This document shows, in pieces, positions 1,289 to 43,729 of a stretch of 43,895 nt of DNA. A program made the translations under genes and the position numbers. The notes beneath the pieces are model-generated. The model was not told the origin of the DNA. It saw only the letters and a list, made by a program, of their open reading frames with translations, and did no database searches. Source of the DNA: a virus; the UHGV virus genome UHGV-0356621. One strand, written 5' to 3'. Every line of letters starts with the position of its first letter. The first letter of the stretch is position 1.

Positions 1289-2449
1289 TCAGAATCCTAA
1301 TGCAAACCAGCGGAAACCGTCTGCTGGAGTTGCTGTTGATACCCATGAGAAGAAGAAATTGACATCAGAGTTAGAAATGGCACCAACCTGAGAAAAAACA
1401 TCAATACCGGCATTTCCTGACAAATTGGACGGGGTTGCCATTGCCATCAAGGAGAAATTCGGGAACGGTGTTGGGAAAATAACGTTTTGCACCCCTTCTG
1501 GTATAGACTTTAAAACAGCGCCCCATTGAATTATTAACCCACCAGAAACGTCTGGAATGCGGACAAAATCATTCGCTGCAAAATTTCTCTTTGGAAGAAA
1601 TGATTTCAGGCCGCTGGCATCTACCATTTTTTTAGCCGTACCCGACTGAATATCAGCGGCGGTAGCGATCGGCCCCAATCCCAAACCTGAAAGTACTCCC
1701 GCTGCATCACTCCTGCCGAGTATTGTTCTTGCGAATGCTGTCAGATCGGTTATTGCTACAGTATCTTCGCCAGTGAAGTAAGGTAATTTATTTGCTGAAC
1801 TTGCCAGGGCTGCAATGGCAGTTAAAGTTGCATCCAGTGGTTGTTTCCCATTCAGCAATTCAGTTATGCCAAGGTAGTTCACGATATCAGCAATTTTTTC
1901 TGCCGCCACGACTGTGCGCCCAACGGTTGTAATTCCAGAAAGTCTGGCTGTGTTGCTGTCGTCAAAAAAAGGAAAACTGTTCCCAATGCCATTCAGCGTT
2001 GCGAGCTGCTTTAAACCAAGGTATGTGAGAATGTCAGCAATAGTATTTTTCCCGATAATGTCACGGCCAACAGAAGTTAAATCAGTCTGCGCTGCTGTAT
2101 CATTTCCAGTGAAATATGGGAGTTTATTTGCACCTGTTGCGAGCCCAGCTAATGCCGTCAGCGTGGCGTCAAGCGCCTGGAAATCCTTACCGAACGCGGC
2201 GGACATTTTGGTGATAAACCCGTTCAGGTCACCATCATCAAGCACGTCCAGCCCGCTTTTGTTAGCGGTGTACTGCGCCAACGCTGCCGCTATAAAGCTG
2301 GCCTGTCGAATGGCTTTGTTTACCTGCGCACTGGATGCCTTTCCTGCCATGAATCCAGAGAGTAGAGCCGGAAGTGTTTCCCAGTCAGCCTGGGCTGTCA
2401 CGTTAGCGTTAGGATCAATCGCAAACGCTTTAAAGTTATTTGTTGCCAT
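1289..2449 (-). CDS. Tail fibre protein, distal part, with P2 gpH-like tandem repeat
   Basis: Two copies of LDATLTA(L/I)A.LA...NKLPYFTG.DT...TDLT..R.I.G...A..L.YLGL, matching the KDATLTALAGLATAADRFPYFTGND segment of P2 gpH as I recall it; ATG verified with AAGGAA RBS. Confidence 0.75.
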   Translation of the reverse strand: MATNNFKAFAIDPNANVTAQADWETLPALLSGFMAGKASSAQVNKAIRQASFIAAALAQYTANKSGLDVLDDGDLNGFITKMSAAFGKDFQALDATLTALAGLATGANKLPYFTGNDTAAQTDLTSVGRDIIGKNTIADILTYLGLKQLATLNGIGNSFPFFDDSNTARLSGITTVGRTVVAAEKIADIVNYLGITELLNGKQPLDATLTAIAALASSANKLPYFTGEDTVAITDLTAFARTILGRSDAAGVLSGLGLGPIATAADIQSGTAKKMVDASGLKSFLPKRNFAANDFVRIPDVSGGLIIQWGAVLKSIPEGVQNVIFPTPFPNFSLMAMATPSNLSGNAGIDVFSQVGAISNSDVNFFFSWVSTATPADGFRWFALGF

Positions 2450-2458
2450 TTTTATTCC

Positions 2459-2761
2459 TTAAGCCCAGACGCGAGCCAGTGTTTTCGGTGCAACCACAAA
2501 GTCGTTCAGCCCGGATAAATCGAGCGAGTCATTCATGACCCGCAAATTGGCGTGATAGCCGGGTTCGGTGGTGTACTTGATAACTTCGTTTTCCTCGCCG
2601 GAATTGATAACTTCAGCAGGAACAGTGATAACGCCGACGATATCCAGGCTGATATCAGGGTGATAAAAACCACCCTGTCCCTCATCATCCACAAACCCCG
2701 CCGCGATTAATTGCGTGCGCATTTGGTTGGCGTCATTAAAGCGCAGATATAAGTCTCTCAT
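2459..2761 (-). CDS. Hypothetical tail-fibre-associated protein
   Basis: 100-aa ORF between the two fibre genes; ATG overlaps the upstream stop (TAATG). No recognisable motif. Confidence 0.4.
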   Translation of the reverse strand: MRDLYLRFNDANQMRTQLIAAGFVDDEGQGGFYHPDISLDIVGVITVPAEVINSGEENEVIKYTTEPGYHANLRVMNDSLDLSGLNDFVVAPKTLARVWA

Positions 2762-26199: not shown

Positions 26200-26274
26200 T
26201 GGCGGGACAGGAAGGATTCGAACCTTCGACCATTCGGTTAACAGCCGAACGCACAACCGCTGTGCTTCTGACCC
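26200..26274 (-). tRNA. tRNA-like gene, putative tRNA-Asn (anticodon GUU), 75 nt with encoded CCA
   Basis: Minus-strand cloverleaf by eye: acceptor GGGTCAG/CTGTCCC (one T:T mismatch), D stem GCAC/GTGC, anticodon stem TTCGG/CCGAA with loop CTGTTAA, T arm GAAGG-TTCGAAT-CCTTC, discriminator G, CCA. Position 8 is A rather than the usual U. Confidence 0.55.
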
Positions 26275-26371: not shown

Positions 26372-26869
26372 TTAAATTGCAAGCACGTTGTGTGATTTAT
26401 TTGCAATTTTCCTCACATTTTCGCGATCGTTAAACGCATTTTGAAGCGGTTGGTATAAACAGAACAATGAAGCATTGATTATTTGCTTCACCTCTCTACG
26501 GATTGTCGAGATGCTTGGGTGTTTGTACTGATTGCCGCCACGCGTCTTCATAAGGCGAGGCTTACTTACTGCATGCTGCCATGATGCAATTCGGATCTCG
26601 CTGGAGTTGCAGACGTAGTAGGCGAAGATAACCCGCCAGGCATTTTCATCCACATTCTTCAGATAGTGACGAATGACAGCATCAATGAGCATCCCGTCAT
26701 CATCACTACATACCGGTCGTGATGCTTGCTGGGGCTCGACGGTAGCCATGAATCTGGCAATCATGTTGATCATCGCTTTATCAATCTTGCCGGTCTGGCA
26801 CCATGCGCCCCACAACTGGAGCCACTGGTCTACCCATTGATGCTGGTCGTTGGTTAATTCCAGTTTCAT
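26372..26869 (-). CDS. Q: Late-gene antitermination protein Q (Phage_antitermQ-type)
   Basis: Motifs LWGAWCQTG, VCSDDDGMLID and FAYYVCN resemble the WGAW / CCDDDAM / YY signature of this Q family; located just before terminator, tRNA and lysis genes. Confidence 0.7.
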   Translation of the reverse strand: MKLELTNDQHQWVDQWLQLWGAWCQTGKIDKAMINMIARFMATVEPQQASRPVCSDDDGMLIDAVIRHYLKNVDENAWRVIFAYYVCNSSEIRIASWQHAVSKPRLMKTRGGNQYKHPSISTIRREVKQIINASLFCLYQPLQNAFNDRENVRKIANKSHNVLAI

Positions 26870-26981
26870 TATGCGGCTTCCTTCTGTGGCTGGTTGGTTT
26901 TGGTCTGGCTGTGCTTTGCTACTGGCGGCATGCTGGCGCGCTTAACGCTTTCTGCCTGGTACTGGAGGAGGTCGGCGTGGT

Positions 26982-27623
26982 TCATGCGGACTCCTTCTGC
27001 TTTGGTCCGCGATATTCACCATACAGAGGTGCTCTTCCTCTTGGCCTGGTATGCCTGTGGGTTACTTTGGGAGAAAAAAGCGCATCCTCTACATTCATTC
27101 CATTTTTTAGTCGACGCTTGATGGATGTTTCTGATACTGAAACGCGAGGATCCCTTGACCATTCTGTGGCGGTTTTCGTTTCGCCATTAAAAGTTATGGC
27201 TGTGCGTCCTTTTTTTGTGTGCTCAGGGATATGCACTCGAGATCGCATGACATTACACGCCCTGCACAGCACCCTAAGATTTGAGTCCGCATTGTTATCA
27301 ACAACCTCATCAATGTGATCAATATGCGCGGTTTTCCATGTGACCTCCTTGCCGCATTTTTCGCATGGTGGAAGTGTTTCTCCATAACGGTCGTAAACAA
27401 CTTTTCGGTGCTCATATACGCAACCATTCGCCATTGATAGTGGGTGATCAGGAATTTTGAGCATTTGATATCCTTTCGCATTTTTATGCCTGAATTTCCC
27501 TTTACCGTTTTTTGTGAGTTCGTAGGTCCCGTAGCGCATCATTCGGAAGTAGTGCATTTGACAGATACCCTTCCCTGGGTAGTGTTTGCATTCACGATCA
27601 CAACCTTCAACTTTGCATTTCAT
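26982..27623 (-). CDS. HNH homing endonuclease
   Basis: Cys-rich N-terminus and HNH motif HIDHIDEVVDNNADSNLRVLCRACN; C-terminal DNA-binding-like segment; ATGA overlap with NinG. Confidence 0.75.
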   Translation of the reverse strand: MKCKVEGCDRECKHYPGKGICQMHYFRMMRYGTYELTKNGKGKFRHKNAKGYQMLKIPDHPLSMANGCVYEHRKVVYDRYGETLPPCEKCGKEVTWKTAHIDHIDEVVDNNADSNLRVLCRACNVMRSRVHIPEHTKKGRTAITFNGETKTATEWSRDPRVSVSETSIKRRLKNGMNVEDALFSPKVTHRHTRPRGRAPLYGEYRGPKQKESA

Positions 27624-28267
27624 GCTGCACTCTCCTGTAATTTTTGACGGCGCTTCATCAGTGCACTGGCCCTGCGGGAAAAAATTGCTTTCACCCGCTT
27701 CAGGTAGGTAACGTCAAACCGGCGTGGGGCATTGTCAGCTTCGAGCCGCTCTACGCGCTCAAGGCCAATGCGATTAACCAGGCGGATCCGGTACTCGACA
27801 GCATTACCGCTCAACTGTCGGTTACAGCGGGTGCAAGCGGAGTGGACGTTAAACACGTTGAATTTGAGGTGTGAGGCAGCGCCGCGTGAACGGTAATGGC
27901 TGGCGTCAATGGCGCTGCCAGTCAGGTAATTGCTTTTTCCCATAAGTGGATTGCCGCAACTGACACATGGCTTACCTTCATCGCGGATCCGGATGTAGCG
28001 ATTGAAAGCTGATTGAGCCTCTTTATCCCACTGAGATTTAGACTTGAGTGACTCACGCTTGGCCTTACGGCGTTTGCGCCCGGCCTTCTCTGCCTCCTTC
28101 TGCTCTTTGATGCGCTTCGCCGCGGCCTTAACCTTCTCCTTTTCGCGCTCTTCCATCGCGAGGATTGCGCCGTGCTCCGGGCTGCACCAGCGGATCCGGA
28201 TATCGTGGAATTTCGGCACGAAGTATTCCCCGCATACTTTGCACTTACGGCGGGATGGTTTACGCAT
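27620..28267 (-). CDS. ninG: NinG (Rap) recombination protein
   Basis: [11 protein letters not shown]...WCSPEHG N-terminus, central basic K/E/R stretch, and ...SGN.V.YR..L..RIG..V matching lambda NinG; ATG at 28267. Confidence 0.8.
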
Positions 28268-28928
28268 GTTCACCGCCTTGCACCTTTACCAGCGTGAGGT
28301 TTCCGCAGAACACGGCGCCGGTGTCGATGTACATCTGGTTGGCATACTTCAGGGGCTGGCGCGCTGGGGTGTGGCCGAAGATAAACAGATCAGCACCGGC
28401 TATCGTCGATACAATGCCGTCCTGTGCGTCGCTAACCCTCTCACGATTCCAGATGACCATATCTTTCGGGATGGGCTTATCGAACGCATATTCGTTATGC
28501 GGGTAGTCAGCGTGGCAGATAACGATTTTACGCTCAGCGGTAACCAGCTCGATGACGAGTGGCAGCTCAGCTGCTTTGTGAACCAGAGCCTTAGCCAGCA
28601 CTTCTTTGTCATAGTCGAGATTGAAGAACCAGCCGCCACCATTTGCCAACCAGTGATTGACGTTTCCATACTCCGATAGCCCATCAATCATCATCTGCTC
28701 ATGGTTGCCACGAACAGCACGGAACCACGGCATAGTAATCAGATCCAGGCATTCGACGTTTTCCGCGCCGCGGTCAACAAGGTCTCCAACCGAAATCAGC
28801 AAATCGCACGCAGGGTCGAACGAAACTTTTTCGAGCTCATTCATCAGCAGGGTGTAGCACCCATGCAGATCGCCGACAACGAAGATATTGCGCCAGTCAG
28901 CGCCATTAATGCGTTGATACATGCTCAT
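28260..28928 (-). CDS. Ser/Thr protein phosphatase (lambda NinI-like)
   Basis: GDLHG, GDLVDRG and GNHE metallophosphatase motifs; ATG at 28928 after GAGGAGAAAA. Confidence 0.85.
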
Positions 28929-37399: not shown

Positions 37400-37602
37400 T
37401 TGGAATGCACTACGGCACCGCATCAGTGCCACGTAGCGAGGTTTTACCTGGCACAATGCTGCAACACCACGGCAAAACTTATCGCGCCTCTGCGAACGTT
37501 GAGAAAGGCCTGTACGCCTTCAACATCTTCGAAAAAACCATCATCAAAAGTGATTCCGTCGTTGTGCTGCTGAATGAGCGCGGCGAGCCGATGGTTCACT
37601 GA
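37396..37602 (+). CDS. Hypothetical early protein
   Basis: 68 aa, translationally coupled to the preceding small ORF. Confidence 0.35.
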   Translation: MIGMHYGTASVPRSEVLPGTMLQHHGKTYRASANVEKGLYAFNIFEKTIIKSDSVVVLLNERGEPMVH

Positions 37603-37678
37603 TACCAACCAACCTATTCAACCGATCGGCCTGGCTAAAAGCGGGCGGGATCTGCACATCCAAATTTCAGGAGAAACC

Positions 37679-38650
37679 ATGAGCGAAGTAACGGACTTAA
37701 CTGTCATCGAAATCAAGCCGGAACAGGCCCCAGTGCTTTACGTAGCGGGCGGCCTTGACGCGTACCTTGAGCAAATCCGCCAGGCTGTAAACGAAGTGCC
37801 GGACCTGTCCACGAAGAAAGGCCGTGACCGTGTTGCCTCTCTGGCAGCGCAGGTGTCCCGCAGCAAGACGGCAATCGAAAAGCCGGGCCGTGAGTACCTG
37901 AAGCGCCTGAAAGAGGCTGTACGCCCTGCCGAGGCCGAAATTAAGCGATTCGTTGATGCCTGCGACGAGCTGCGCGATGCGACCCGCCGCCCACTCACCG
38001 AATGGGAAGCCGAGCAGGAACGCATTAAGGCTGAAGAAGCCATGAACGCGATGCACGCCGAAGCGCTGGAGATGAACATCAGGTTCGATCAGGAGCTGGC
38101 TGCCAAGTTCGAAGCGGACCACGAAATGGCTCTACTGATGAACAAGGATTTTGACCGTGACCGCGAAGAGCAGCGCCGTCTGGCGGAACAGGCTCAGCGT
38201 GAACGTGATGAGCGGCTGAAACAGGAAGCGGCAGAACAAGCCCGCCGCGATGCCGAAGCGAAGCACAAAGCGGAGATTGAAGCCGCAGCGCGCCGTGAAG
38301 CTGAAGAGAAAGCACGTGCAGAGCTGGCTGAACGCCAGCGCGTCGAAGCGGAACAGCGTGCAGCTCGCGAGAAGCAGGAAGCAGAAGCCCGGGCAGAACG
38401 CGAAAAAGCCGCGGCGGTTGAAGCCGAGCGCCTGAAGGCCAAACAGGCCGAAGATGCCCGCCTGGCCGAAGAGAAGCGCCTCGCCGATGAGCAGGCAAAG
38501 CGTGAAGCTGACGTTAAGCACCGCAAGACGGTCGGCACCAACATCGTTAACGCGCTCACCAGCAACACCAGCTTAACCCGCGAACAGGCTATCGAAGTGC
38601 TTACCGCTCTGAAAGATGACCTCATCCCCTGCGCGAAAATTCATTACTGA
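37679..38650 (+). CDS. Hypothetical protein with long Glu/Ala/Arg-rich coiled coil
   Basis: 323 aa from the ATG at 37679 (GGAGAAACC RBS); conserved N-terminal domain then about 150 aa of EAEAKHKAEIEAAARREAEEKARAE-type repeats. Confidence 0.5.
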   Translation: MSEVTDLTVIEIKPEQAPVLYVAGGLDAYLEQIRQAVNEVPDLSTKKGRDRVASLAAQVSRSKTAIEKPGREYLKRLKEAVRPAEAEIKRFVDACDELRDATRRPLTEWEAEQERIKAEEAMNAMHAEALEMNIRFDQELAAKFEADHEMALLMNKDFDRDREEQRRLAEQAQRERDERLKQEAAEQARRDAEAKHKAEIEAAARREAEEKARAELAERQRVEAEQRAAREKQEAEARAEREKAAAVEAERLKAKQAEDARLAEEKRLADEQAKREADVKHRKTVGTNIVNALTSNTSLTREQAIEVLTALKDDLIPCAKIHY

Positions 38651-38942: not shown

Positions 38943-38960
38943 TTTTTGAGGGGATTAACG

Positions 38961-39806
38961 ATGACAAACGAATTAACAATCACCGCGACTTCGCTTCAGG
39001 AAAAAGGTATCGATGTCGCTACCTGGAGCGCGCTGAAGAACAGTATCTACCCTGGTGCCAAAGACGAATCGGTAATGATGGCGCTCGATTACTGCCGTGC
39101 CCGCCAGTTGGATCCACTGCTGAAGCCCGTTCACCTCGTGCCGATGAGCGTCAAAGACTCAAGAACGGGTAAAAGCGAATGGCGCGACGTGGTCATGCCG
39201 GGCATCGGGCTTTACCGCATTCAGGCGGACCGCTCCGGCGATTATGCCGGGGCCCGCGAACCAGAGTTCGGTCCAGACGTAACTCAGACGCTTACTGGTG
39301 TAGAGGTGACTTTCCCTCAGTGGTGCAAATACACCGTCTACAAGCGCATGCCCAGCGGGGAGATCGTCGAGTTCAGCGCCAAAGAATATTGGATTGAAAA
39401 CTACGCCACCGGCGGCCGCGACACCACGGCGCCGAACGCGATGTGGAAAAAGCGCCCATACGGACAGCTGGCGAAATGCGCAGAAGCCCAGGCGTTGCGT
39501 AAGGCATGGCCTGAGATTGGACAGCAGCCTACCGCCGAAGAAATGGAAGGCAAATCACTGGACGTTGATATCCGTGACGTCACGCCGCGCAGCACCACAG
39601 AAGCGCTTCCACCAGCAGCAAGCGAAGAAACGCTTCAGGCCATCACCGATCTCTTAACATCGCTGAATAAAGACTGGGAGCAAGACTTCCTCCCAGTGTG
39701 CAGCGACATCTTCAAACGACCAATTCTTGAGGCGTCAGACCTCACTGAAGAAGAGGCACAGAAAGGGTTCAACTTCCTTCAGAAAAAAGCTAAGGCGGCA
39801 GCATGA
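38961..39806 (+). CDS. recT: RecT-family single-strand annealing recombinase
   Basis: ALDYCRARQLDPLLKPVHLVP...KDSRTG...IGLYRIQADRSGDYAG resembles Rac RecT; ATG at 38961 with GAGGGGA RBS. Confidence 0.8.
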   Translation: MTNELTITATSLQEKGIDVATWSALKNSIYPGAKDESVMMALDYCRARQLDPLLKPVHLVPMSVKDSRTGKSEWRDVVMPGIGLYRIQADRSGDYAGAREPEFGPDVTQTLTGVEVTFPQWCKYTVYKRMPSGEIVEFSAKEYWIENYATGGRDTTAPNAMWKKRPYGQLAKCAEAQALRKAWPEIGQQPTAEEMEGKSLDVDIRDVTPRSTTEALPPAASEETLQAITDLLTSLNKDWEQDFLPVCSDIFKRPILEASDLTEEEAQKGFNFLQKKAKAAA

Positions 39807-40423
39807 ACGCCAATCCACTTATGCCCGGTGAAAAATACGGGCACTTAACCGTCAAAGAACACTCGCACATGCTGAGAGGTAGAAGGATGTATCTCTGCCT
39901 TTGTGTGTGCGGTAATTCCTGCTATAGGGCCGCAAATCAGCTCAAAAACAACTCAATAAGCAGCTGCGGATGCATGATAGGAAAAAACTCCACTCATGGC
40001 CAGCGCAATACCCGCGTTTACAGGATTTGGAGCGGGATGAAAAATCGCTGCACAAACCCAAAAAACAAAGACTTCGAAAAATACAGTCAGCGCGGTATCT
40101 GCGAAAGATGGCTGACGTTCGAGCTATTTCTTGAAGATATGGGGCCACCTCCTACGCCTAAGCATCAGCTAGATCGGAAGAACAATGAAGGCCCGTATTC
40201 AAAAGAAAATTGCAGATGGGCAACGGTTACCAAGCAGGCGGAAAACAGAAGCACATCGTTTTACTGGTTTGTTGATGGGTTGCGTTTTGAAAGCGCCGGA
40301 GCCGCCGCGAATCATTTTGGCGTGAAATCAGCAACCATCCACAAATGGTGTCACGGCTACAACAATAGAGGCATTAACATCCCGCCAAGAGCCAACTGCC
40401 GTAAGGAGAGGAAATATGGATAA
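39803..40423 (+). CDS. HNH-like homing endonuclease family protein
   Basis: Cys cluster, then [13 protein letters not shown]....F.KYSQRGI.ICERW..FE.F..DMG and [21 protein letters not shown], a pattern I associate with free-standing phage HNH-type endonucleases; inserted between recT and exo with ATGA coupling. Confidence 0.5.
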
Positions 40424-41102
40424 CACGTGGCTCATTAAATTTGAGCAAATATTTGGGCCAATTGCACAAATTGAGCAAGGCAGCGAGACATGGGCAAGGG
40501 CGAGACTCGGAGTTATTACTGCCTCTGACGCTCACAACGTCATTTCCAAGCCTCGATCTGGCACCAAATGGACAGACATGAAAATGTCCTATTTCCACAC
40601 GCTGCTCGCCGAGGTATGCACCGGTGTAGCGCCAGAGGTTAACGCCAAGGCGCTGGCCTGGGGCAAGCAGTACGAAGAAGACGCCCGCACCCTCTTCGAG
40701 TTCACCACTGACGTGAAAGTCACGGAGTCTCCGATCTTGTTCCGTGACGAGAGCATGCGCACCGCCTGCTCCCCTGACGGCCTGTGCAGTAACGGGTTCG
40801 GCCTTGAGCTTAAATGCCCGTTCACCTCCCGCGACTTCATGAAATTCCGCCTTGGCGGTTTCGAAGCCATCAAGTCTGCGTACATGGCCCAGGTGCAGTA
40901 CAGCATGTGGGTGACCGGGAAAGATGCCTGGTTTTTTGCCAACTACGACCCTCGCATGAAACGCGAAGGCATTCACCATGTCGTCGTTGAGCGGGATCCG
41001 CAGTACATGACCGATTTCAACGAAATGGTGCCGGAGTTCATTGAGAAGATGGACGAGGCGCTGGCGGAAATCGGCTTCACGTTCGGGGAGCAGTGGAAAT
41101 GA
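40416..41102 (+). CDS. exo: Lambda-type exonuclease (Red-alpha)
   Basis: Very close to lambda Exo across the protein ([57 protein letters not shown]..., C-terminus [19 protein letters not shown]); AAGGAGAGG RBS. Confidence 0.92.
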
Positions 41103-42136: not shown

Positions 42137-42334
42137 ATGGATGATATTTTGGTAACGTCAGACCTGACCAGTCGCTACAAAATTTCACGCAAAACCCTTT
42201 GGTCATGGCAAAGTGCAGACACAATGCCTCGGGGCTTCGTATGCCCGTTCCCACCCCCTGACTGGCCCGGCAACCCTAACCGCTGGCGCTCTGAGTCAAT
42301 CAAAGAGTGGGAGGATAAAAAGAAGATAAATTAA
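42137..42334 (+). CDS. xis: AlpA-family excisionase / transcriptional regulator
   Basis: [24 protein letters not shown]...[10 protein letters not shown] fits the AlpA/Xis winged-helix pattern; ATG at 42137 after GGAGAGAG; convergent with int. Confidence 0.6.
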
Positions 42335-43524
42335 CTGAAGGGCTCTCCGATGATCTCTTCAAGATGGCTCTGCCAAACGCGGAGCCAGTGTTTCTGATCA
42401 TCGATATAGTCATGAAGGTTGTAATGCGCCATAACCCCCACCATCTGATGCCCGAGCAGCTTTTCAATTACGTGCGGCGGGCAACCTAACTCAGAGAGAT
42501 TTGTGGCTATCGTCCGCCTCATATCATGAAGCGACCACTCTGCCATACCTGTTCCATTCCAAATAGAACGGGCGTAATTGGATGCCACAGGTGAATGAAC
42601 GGGCGAATCTTTGATCCCGCCATCAATTTTACGTTGTGAAGTCACCAGGTGATTGGTGTTTATTTTCTTGAGGTGATTTCTGACCAGGTTAACGGCGGCG
42701 TCTGAGAGTCCCCTTCTAATATGTACCCGAGTTTTATAACTGCCCGCAGGCACGACCCACTCATTATCATCCAATCGAAACCATGATCTCTCACTAAGTC
42801 GAATCTCAGCCGTACGGCATCCGGTAAGCATAATAAATTTCACCAGGAAAACGGACTCTATCGACATATGGCTTTTCAACCACTGATAGATTTTGCGCAG
42901 ATCGTCATCGTCCATCCTGCGAGTTCTCTTTTTAGGCTTTTGCCCGACATCAGATGGCAGTAATCCCTCGAGTGGGTTTGAGGCGATCACACTTCTGTTA
43001 ACGCAGAACCTAAACGCCCGTTTGCACAGCGAAAGCATGTAATGAGCCATCACCCTGCTTTCTATAGAATCGAAGACGTTGATCCAGTGCATTTTCGCTG
43101 TGTTATCGACTTTGACATTCTTCATCGGTTCGGCGATATGTTTCTCAAACACCTGGCGATAGTAATCGACTTTAACTAGCCCGTTAGCGATACAGTGCCT
43201 TTCAATCCAGTAATTGAACGCTTCGGCAACGGACATCGCTTCCTGTCGGGTCTGCTTATCCAGCTTCACCTGCTCTCGCGGATCCAGTCCCTCAGTTAAC
43301 CAGTTTCTGAATTGTTGGCGACGCTCTCTTGCCTGGGTGATACTCATTGCAGGATAATCACCAACATTGAGTTTTACCGCTTTACCGGCCCAGCGATACC
43401 GATAGAAAAATGATATTTTTCCGGCCTGGCTGATTCTGGCGTTGAGCCCGTGCGAATCAGAAATAATCTCGATATCATCTCTTTTCTTGCCGAGCGCCTT
43501 CCTGAGCTTTGTGTCGGTGATCAT
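42331..43524 (-). CDS. int: Tyrosine integrase, P4-like family
   Basis: N-terminus [10 protein letters not shown]...[29 protein letters not shown] as in P4-type integrases; C-terminal catalytic region ...HDMRRT...LLGH...Y; start at 43524 is one of several possible. Confidence 0.85.
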
Positions 43525-43729
43525 TGAATGGGTACACATTTTTGTTTTTGGGTACACAAAAGTGTACACAAAGTTGCCCACTCAAAGCTACACGCAATGT
43601 AACACTAGTTCGCAGAGTGTTATGGTTTACATCCTTGAAAGCCTGCTGGATAAGGGTTTAGCGTAACAGAACGTTTTTACGCGGAATTGTTCGTAATATG
43701 CCAAATGACAATTTAAGAAAGTGTTCTAA

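Follow-up and report, generated by a model that had tools for sequence, protein, structure and literature searches.

Our comparative analysis shows that the window, the whole 43,895 nt stretch of UHGV virus genome UHGV-0356621, is a lambdoid prophage (mosaic with phi80, HK639 and Klebsiella/Enterobacter prophages), and suggests, with a probability that we put at about 60 %, that ORF-A (26982..27623, minus strand; 213 aa) and ORF-B (39803..40423, plus strand; 206 aa) are free-standing homing-endonuclease-type genes within its translationally coupled early operons. Both genes exist where an initial annotation had placed them, ORF-A as a free-standing HNH endonuclease gene and ORF-B as an atypical, homing-endonuclease-like gene of the HNH superfamily. 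They fit homing genes because they are nuclease-type with modular DNA binding, sporadic and incongruent with their flanks, and because each has exact boundaries, a foreign composition and a divergent stretch of a neighbouring gene that travels with it. Both would be elements of a well-known kind, with insertion boundaries that are unusually clear here; what we infer for them is cleavage, the position of the target and drive.

The nin operon (minus strand) runs NinB, protein phosphatase, NinG, ORF-A, a 38-aa ORF and Q, after which come a tRNA-Asn and the lysis genes; the tRNA-Asn (GTT; 26200..26274, minus strand) is situated in the late-operon leader, after Q and before the holin/lysis genes. 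Upstream of ORF-A, ninG/rap (27620..28273, minus strand) encodes a structure-specific endonuclease (Pfam NinG, E=2e-52) and, going by its relatives, is likely to start at the ATG at 28267 (215 aa). Since the 38-aa ORF (26869..26985, minus strand), overlooked in the initial annotation, intervenes, Q does not follow ORF-A immediately. This Q (26372..26869, minus strand; Pfam Phage_antitermQ, E=1e-21), the downstream anchor of the nin slot, is 100 % identical in amino acid sequence to the Q of Enterobacter locus L029, itself HNH-less. The recombination operon (plus strand) comprises a gamL-like gene, recT, ORF-B, exo, a gene for a 144-aa HTH protein and DUF1317. Here recT (38946..39806; Pfam RecT, E=5e-27) specifies a recT/bet-type annealing protein, its start likely being the ATG at 38961 (846 nt, as in the annotated relatives), and exo (40416..41102; Pfam YqaJ, E=2e-31) a lambda-type exonuclease; the naming of NinG, recT and exo as the neighbours is therefore borne out by Pfam. 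Upstream of the gamL-like gene, where phi80 has ‘agt’ (Mog, modifier of Gam), 37574..38650 (plus strand) encodes a protein of 358 aa that includes a long and highly charged helical stretch rich in Glu, Ala, Arg and Lys; a Pfam search with this protein gave no significant match. The integrase gene (42331..43581, minus strand) is on the opposite strand and convergent with the recombination operon, as in phi80.

ORF-A was initially annotated as HNH, and its match to Pfam HNH (PF01844; 31.1 bits against a gathering score of 21.4) and its resemblance to I-HmuI, the best fold match, agree with this. The HNH motif (residues 87–127; nt 27243..27365, minus strand) is intact (CxxC..DH..N..CxxCN) and is framed by a CxxC...CxxC zinc site (C87, C90, C120 and C123). 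An N-terminal Cys/His cluster (C3, C8, C21 and H24) and an EHR hairpin (residues 71–73) precede it, and an HTH-like module (residues 143–183) follows it. Across 27 homologues (46–85 % identity) E71-H72-R73, C87, C90, D102-H103, N111, N115, C120, C123 and N124 are invariant. By these features ORF-A is a canonical I-HmuI-like HNH enzyme and a predicted nuclease, a routine HNH gene of an ordinary kind. An NCBIfam search with the ORF-A and ORF-B proteins returned nothing meaningful.

The presence of ORF-A was scored in the 80 closest NinG loci in IMG/VR; a scan of species-representative genomes with NinG had given distant alleles only (≤71 % identity), the IMG/VR scan close HNH-less ones. ORF-A is present in 13 of the 80, namely in all nine loci with NinG identity of ≥95 % and in none of the 19 at 89–92 %, and the 13 carriers have a 98.6–100 % identical HNH gene beside ninG alleles of 87–99.5 % identity. 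At megablast sensitivity, none of 5426 complete E. coli genomes has it. In Klebsiella, an 83 %-identical HNH gene follows a 47 %-identical NinG and precedes a different small ORF, YlcG. More distant homologues occur after RusA in Salmonella and after NinG in Proteus, so the ORF-A family appears to be a long-term resident of the nin slot.

In the HNH-less alleles the 38-aa ORF comes directly after NinG, joined to it by the linker GGAGGCCGCATGA, and these empty sites give exact insertion boundaries for ORF-A. The right junction of the window carries a copy of that linker (GGAGTCCGCATGA; 26982..26994, minus strand), and the left junction linker (GGAGAGTGCAGCATGA; 27620..27635, minus strand) combines a Shine–Dalgarno sequence, the ninG stop and the ORF-A start. 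Moreover, the last ~150 nt of ninG (27620..27773, minus strand) are co-inherited with ORF-A and may be a co-conversion tract or an altered target: they match the window at 64–74 % identity in HNH-less alleles and at 96–100 % in HNH-bearing ones. Locus L083 illustrates this, as its 98.6 %-identical HNH gene stands beside a NinG of just 87 % and its ninG 3′ tract is still 96–100 % identical though the ninG 5′ part is only 58–68 % identical. NinG, HNH gene and 38-aa ORF form one block that moves between different Q and lysis modules.

Several further observations concern this slot. In many relatives (e.g. loci L064-L069, L032 and L026) the place of ORF-A is filled by a gene of ~73 aa (a 221-nt insert; the product starts MSKIQYPMTT...), and gap lengths of 176, 187, 203, 380 and 407 nt point to several further alternative cassettes. 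The 38-aa ORF (MNHADLLQYQAESVKRASMPPVAKHSQTKTNQPQKEAA) and its DNA are 84–100 % conserved before Q antiterminators from at least three unrelated families, and the genes preceding it vary (NinG, Rus, Lar, HNH). It sits in a pre-Q segment of ~113 nt common to the window, phi80 (L006) and HK639 (L005), in both of which phages it is without annotation; it could be a linker or recombination joint, a small protein or a regulatory segment for Q expression.

ORF-B is less easily classified. The initial annotation called it HNH-like, which holds as far as superfamily membership and homology to gp59 of phage ICP1 are concerned; the catalytic histidine, on the other hand, is replaced by arginine. Searches against Pfam (including PF01844 and HNH_3, PF13392) gave no nuclease match, only a weak one to HTH_28 (E=0.002), no Pfam model covers the core of the family, and sequence and profile searches against PDB sequences found no match. 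NCBI records name it ‘HTH domain-containing’ or ‘hypothetical’, and PHROGs assigns ORF-B to phrog_374, ‘HNH endonuclease’ (E=7e-50). The protein consists of a CapR-like zinc DNA-binding module (residues ~10–57; nt 39830..39973, plus strand), an atypical His-Me-finger core (residues 65–148; nt 39995..40246, plus strand; conserved D124, R125, Y132, N136, R138 and N148) and a C-terminal HTH (residues 153–203; nt 40259..40411, plus strand). In 40 diverse homologues H65, W76, R82, C83, G98, W103, F109, R125, Y132, N136, W139 and N148 are invariant, with D or E at position 124; the N-terminal CxC...CGC module is nearly invariant and has up to three repeats in some. Single members of the family carry CapR, AP2, NUMOD1 or I-TevI DNA-binding domains; AP2 is found in two of the 40 relatives and in a Staphylococcus intron homologue, ORF-B itself having the HTH instead.

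Profile–profile comparison of ORF-B with the ORF-A family (93 % probability, E=3e-7) places IDR(125)ID...NCRWAT of ORF-B on HIDH(103)ID...NLRPLC of ORF-A. R125 is thus aligned on H103, so that the histidine expected at the end of beta-1 in a canonical HNH enzyme is missing from ORF-B and arginine takes its place. The core also aligns with ICP1 gp59 (hhalign, 94.6 % probability, E=7e-8, 114 columns) and, in its first half, with the ICP1 gp59/gp209 group (BLASTP, E=6e-6); gp59 is a founder of the ‘IPA-HNH’ homing endonuclease family (PMC10055350). Staphylococcus phage Lacachita has a 33 %-identical homologue that shares the core motif of ORF-B, ends in an AP2 tail and is encoded within a group I intron, confirmed by Rfam, which interrupts the endolysin gene. 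Judged by these profile comparisons the ORF-B core is of the HNH superfamily, and the gene falls into a known, poorly characterized atypical HNH group (IPA-HNH/HNH-AP2-like); both genes are accordingly assigned nuclease-type folds and not another function, as the initial annotation had expected. F-CphI was considered as a further relative and rejected, since it uses an Endo VII motif (PMC6083498).

The spacing of D124 R125 x6 Y132 x3 N136 x R138 in ORF-B equals that of D92 R93 x6 Y100 x3 N104 x R106 in PacI, an enzyme without the histidine, whose role is taken over by a loop tyrosine (PMC5714182, PMC4081073). In ORF-B arginine would replace the general-base histidine and a loop tyrosine would be placed as in PacI; this exact motif match may be a new, if modest, point. 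Foldseek retrieved only the HTH (I-TevI DNA-binding-like) and Tudor-like parts of ORF-B and not PacI, so a link to PacI at the level of the fold is only moderately supported. A far-reaching proposal, which we advance tentatively and consider doubtful as a whole, is that ORF-B represents a very large phage family (897 records, no Pfam model) of PacI-type homing endonucleases with an active-site loop tyrosine, that the placement of ORF-B between recT and exo creates a self-contained ‘cut-and-repair’ unit and that the rewritten exo 5′ end confers immunity. If so, the attack would be activated or performed by the loop tyrosine and not by a histidine, and the break-maker would be co-expressed with the Red-like enzymes that copy ORF-B into the broken rival genome.

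The distribution of ORF-B is broad and at the same time patchy. Relatives were found by tblastn in 897 phage records, often several in one genome, and ORF-B also occurs in a large Klebsiella cluster; a near-identical copy is present in 11 of 5426 complete E. coli genomes, every time between recT and a 687-nt exo. Not one of the 80 IMG/VR loci whose recT comes closest (94–98 % aa identity) has it, so that, with ORF-A in 13 of 80 NinG loci, neither gene is universal among relatives, and comparison with insert-less relatives, which the initial annotation had proposed, yields exact insertion boundaries for both. In E. coli EF7-18-51 a candidate decayed ORF-B (annotated as 387 nt) was dismissed, the gene being intact and the short annotation a matter of start-codon choice.

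In those 80 recT loci the recT–exo junction is empty in 49 (recT-ATGA-exo directly), holds a 203-nt insert with a gene for a 68-aa winged-HTH protein in 17 and a 289-nt insert with a Cys-rich ORF of ~94 aa in 14; examples of inserts lie at 2358..2564 in locus L008, 2361..2647 in L009 and 3790..4076 in L002. The Cys-rich ORF is unannotated in GenBank/RefSeq records. Together with ORF-B the junction therefore has at least four states. What had been flagged as an unusual place for an endonuclease gene turns out to be a polymorphic slot, and this four-state hot spot in lambdoid prophages may likewise be a new but modest point.

Only ORF-B brings a rewritten exo 5′ end; the two small inserts leave a normal one. 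According to the alignments with empty-site alleles, the ORF-B cassette extends from directly after the recT stop to 40505 and replaces the first 30 codons of exo (40416..40505, plus strand), of which the first 66 nt are without similarity to empty alleles; similarity to these begins at 40506. The exo gene is 687 nt long in the window and 681 nt in alleles without ORF-B, and its rewritten start has its own AAGGAG Shine–Dalgarno sequence inside the 3′ end of ORF-B. The cassette (95–96 % identity) occurs behind two different recT types, and the end of similarity on its right-hand side varies.

The overlaps at the junctions need to be read with some care. The ATG of ORF-A overlaps the NinG stop as ATGA (27620–27623), the ORF-A stop overlaps the start of the 38-aa ORF in the same way (26982–26985), and so does the ATG of ORF-B with the recT stop (39803–39806). 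Hence the ATGA overlaps noted in the initial annotation are real for NinG/ORF-A and recT/ORF-B, but not for ORF-B/exo, where the overlap is 8 nt (ATGGATAA; 40416–40423). Further four-base start/stop overlaps occur along the recombination operon (41524, 41850 and 42092), and the empty-site junctions have the same ATGA form as the cassette junctions. Since the overlaps recur along the operon and are the same in empty sites, they reflect operon grammar; the ATGA overlap, which had been taken as a mark of selfish insertion, is the normal junction of every cassette, empty sites included.

Base composition sets both genes apart from their surroundings, GC3 being 0.42 in ORF-A and 0.54 in ORF-B against 0.60–0.74 in the flanking genes, and within exo 0.47 in the rewritten 5′ end against 0.74 in the remainder. 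Both genes are under purifying selection (dN/dS about 0.1–0.2): pairwise values are mostly 0.08–0.28 for ORF-B and 0.05–0.14, where measurable, for ORF-A, for which only two pairs were usable because dS is saturated between distant copies. Every copy of either gene that we checked is intact.

How these genes might spread can be outlined as follows. A carrier phage would meet a related phage or prophage without the gene, and the enzyme would nick or cut the HEG-less allele, near the ninG 3′ end in the case of ORF-A and near the exo 5′ end in that of ORF-B. Recombinational repair would then copy the gene, with the adjacent donor stretch of ninG or exo, into the recipient, and the divergence of this stretch would also shield the carrier from self-cleavage; a divergent co-travelling neighbour stretch is indeed a prediction of co-conversion combined with target-site immunity. 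The main rival, rather unlikely in our estimation and not exclusive of homing, regards ORF-A and ORF-B as ordinary moron-like mosaic cassettes that homologous or short-linker recombination moves about at conserved junctions. The nuclease would then not drive the spread and might work for the phage, for instance against the DNA of relatives that compete or superinfect, or in another kind of DNA transaction. Such shuffling would account for the same Shine–Dalgarno-plus-ATGA linker bounding each nin-slot and recT–exo cassette (and the empty sites), for the use of the same slots by unrelated small genes (68-aa winged-HTH, ~94-aa Cys-rich, 73-aa ORF, Lar, YlcG and NinH) and for the mobility of the ninG–HNH–38-aa ORF block among Q/lysis modules; purifying selection and the lack of decayed copies fit a useful gene, and shuffling is also favoured by the long history of the ORF-A family in the nin slot. 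However, the divergent flank tracts specifically adjoin the nuclease genes, and the cassettes are highly conserved while their flanks have diverged; both ORF-A and ORF-B are more conserved than, and incongruent with, their flanks. Kinship with intron-encoded and ICP1 HEGs is what homing predicts, and the rewriting of the exo 5′ end with ORF-B only, not with the two other inserts, is left unexplained by cassette shuffling.

Two more alternatives each concern one of the genes. It is improbable, in our opinion, that ORF-B derives from a HEG, is catalytically dead and acts as a regulator by binding DNA, even though the arginine at the catalytic histidine position, the weak HTH_28 hit in place of any Pfam nuclease match, the NCBI name ‘helix-turn-helix domain-containing protein’ and the restriction of the Foldseek matches to the HTH and Tudor-like parts would all suit such a protein, and there is precedent for His-Me fingers that have lost catalysis and kept DNA binding (SMAD MH1; PMC5714182). 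Against this, D/E124, R125, Y132, N136 and N148 are invariant in the 40 homologues with the spacing of the active PacI site, homologues occupy the position of a group I intron ORF, and the exo 5′ rewrite fits a need for target immunity. For ORF-A, a role as the terminase's HNH partner in cos cleavage and packaging might be considered, given that HNH proteins of the HK97 gp74 kind are common beside terminases (PMC3592412) and that 37–46 % homologues of ORF-A lie near the genome ends of Vibrio phage 1.029.O, Thalassomonas BA3 and Escherichia phage Fraca. We rejected this role as highly improbable: ORF-A belongs to the early nin operon and precedes Q, the terminase of the window is a Terminase_3 with a Mu-F-like head protein (headful type), and the terminases of carriers vary, the identical protein occurring in prophages with Terminase_2 and other packaging, Q and lysis modules, and Terminase_6N and Terminase_2 prophages carrying a homologue of 83 % identity. 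The architecture of ORF-A, I-HmuI-like with a DNA-binding tail, also argues against it.

Considering the homing reading in relation to known systems, I-HmuI and I-HmuII (Bacillus phages SPO1/SP82; PDB 1u3e) are intron-encoded whereas ORF-A is a free-standing gene of a lambdoid nin operon; ORF-A shares only 20 % identity with I-HmuI and has, in addition, the N-terminal Cys/His cluster and the CxxC..CxxC zinc site. The ICP1 IPA-HNH genes (gp59, gp115/116 and gp209; Barth, Dunham & Seed 2023, PMC10055350) and ORF-B are alike in being too divergent for Pfam HNH models and in adjoining essential or conserved genes, and a likeness to the HNH-AP2 family lies in the AP2 tail of some ORF-B family members, such as the Staphylococcus intron homologue. 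Unlike those proteins, ORF-B has an HTH tail, no AP2 and an N-terminal CapR-like zinc module, it has D-R where gp59 has D-K, and it sits between the recT and exo genes of a lambdoid phage that is temperate. PacI (PDB 3ldy/3m7k; His-Me finger group 20) is a 142-aa homodimeric restriction enzyme with an 8-bp site that, in contrast to ORF-B, lacks extra DNA-binding modules; its zinc ligands are arranged differently, and similarity over the whole domain is weak and was not picked up by Foldseek. The free-standing seg/mob HEGs of T-even phages resemble ORF-A and ORF-B in lying between conserved genes and in being sporadic among relatives, and T-even intronless homing in the co-conversion of flanking markers and the divergence of the neighbouring gene at the presumed target. 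T-even HEGs, however, are mostly GIY-YIG or HNH_3 enzymes with their own promoters in lytic phages, whereas ORF-A and ORF-B are translationally coupled into the early operons of a temperate lambdoid phage. In the D3-like Pseudomonas phages 5399, phita81A and 5371 (PQ758389, PQ738200 and PQ758388), homologues of ORF-A (44 % identity) and ORF-B (38 % identity) are ~2–2.5 kb apart, so the two nuclease families are found together in early regions of temperate phages that are unrelated.

Finally, apart from the possible ORF-B variant and the possible lambdoid examples of homing, what we describe is an ordinary, well-understood kind of element. The conserved residues of ORF-B point to a possible catalytic variant, with arginine at the histidine position and a conserved tyrosine, in a widespread family for which Pfam has no model. 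What is known of phage HEGs is mostly drawn from lytic T4-like and ICP1 phages; if homing holds, ORF-A and ORF-B would be two clean examples, provided by nature, of homing without introns in lambdoid phages that are temperate, and since donor, empty and alternative alleles have already been identified, their target sites would be directly mappable. HEGs at lambdoid module junctions would, moreover, bear on the old question of what sets the mosaic boundaries in lambdoid phages.
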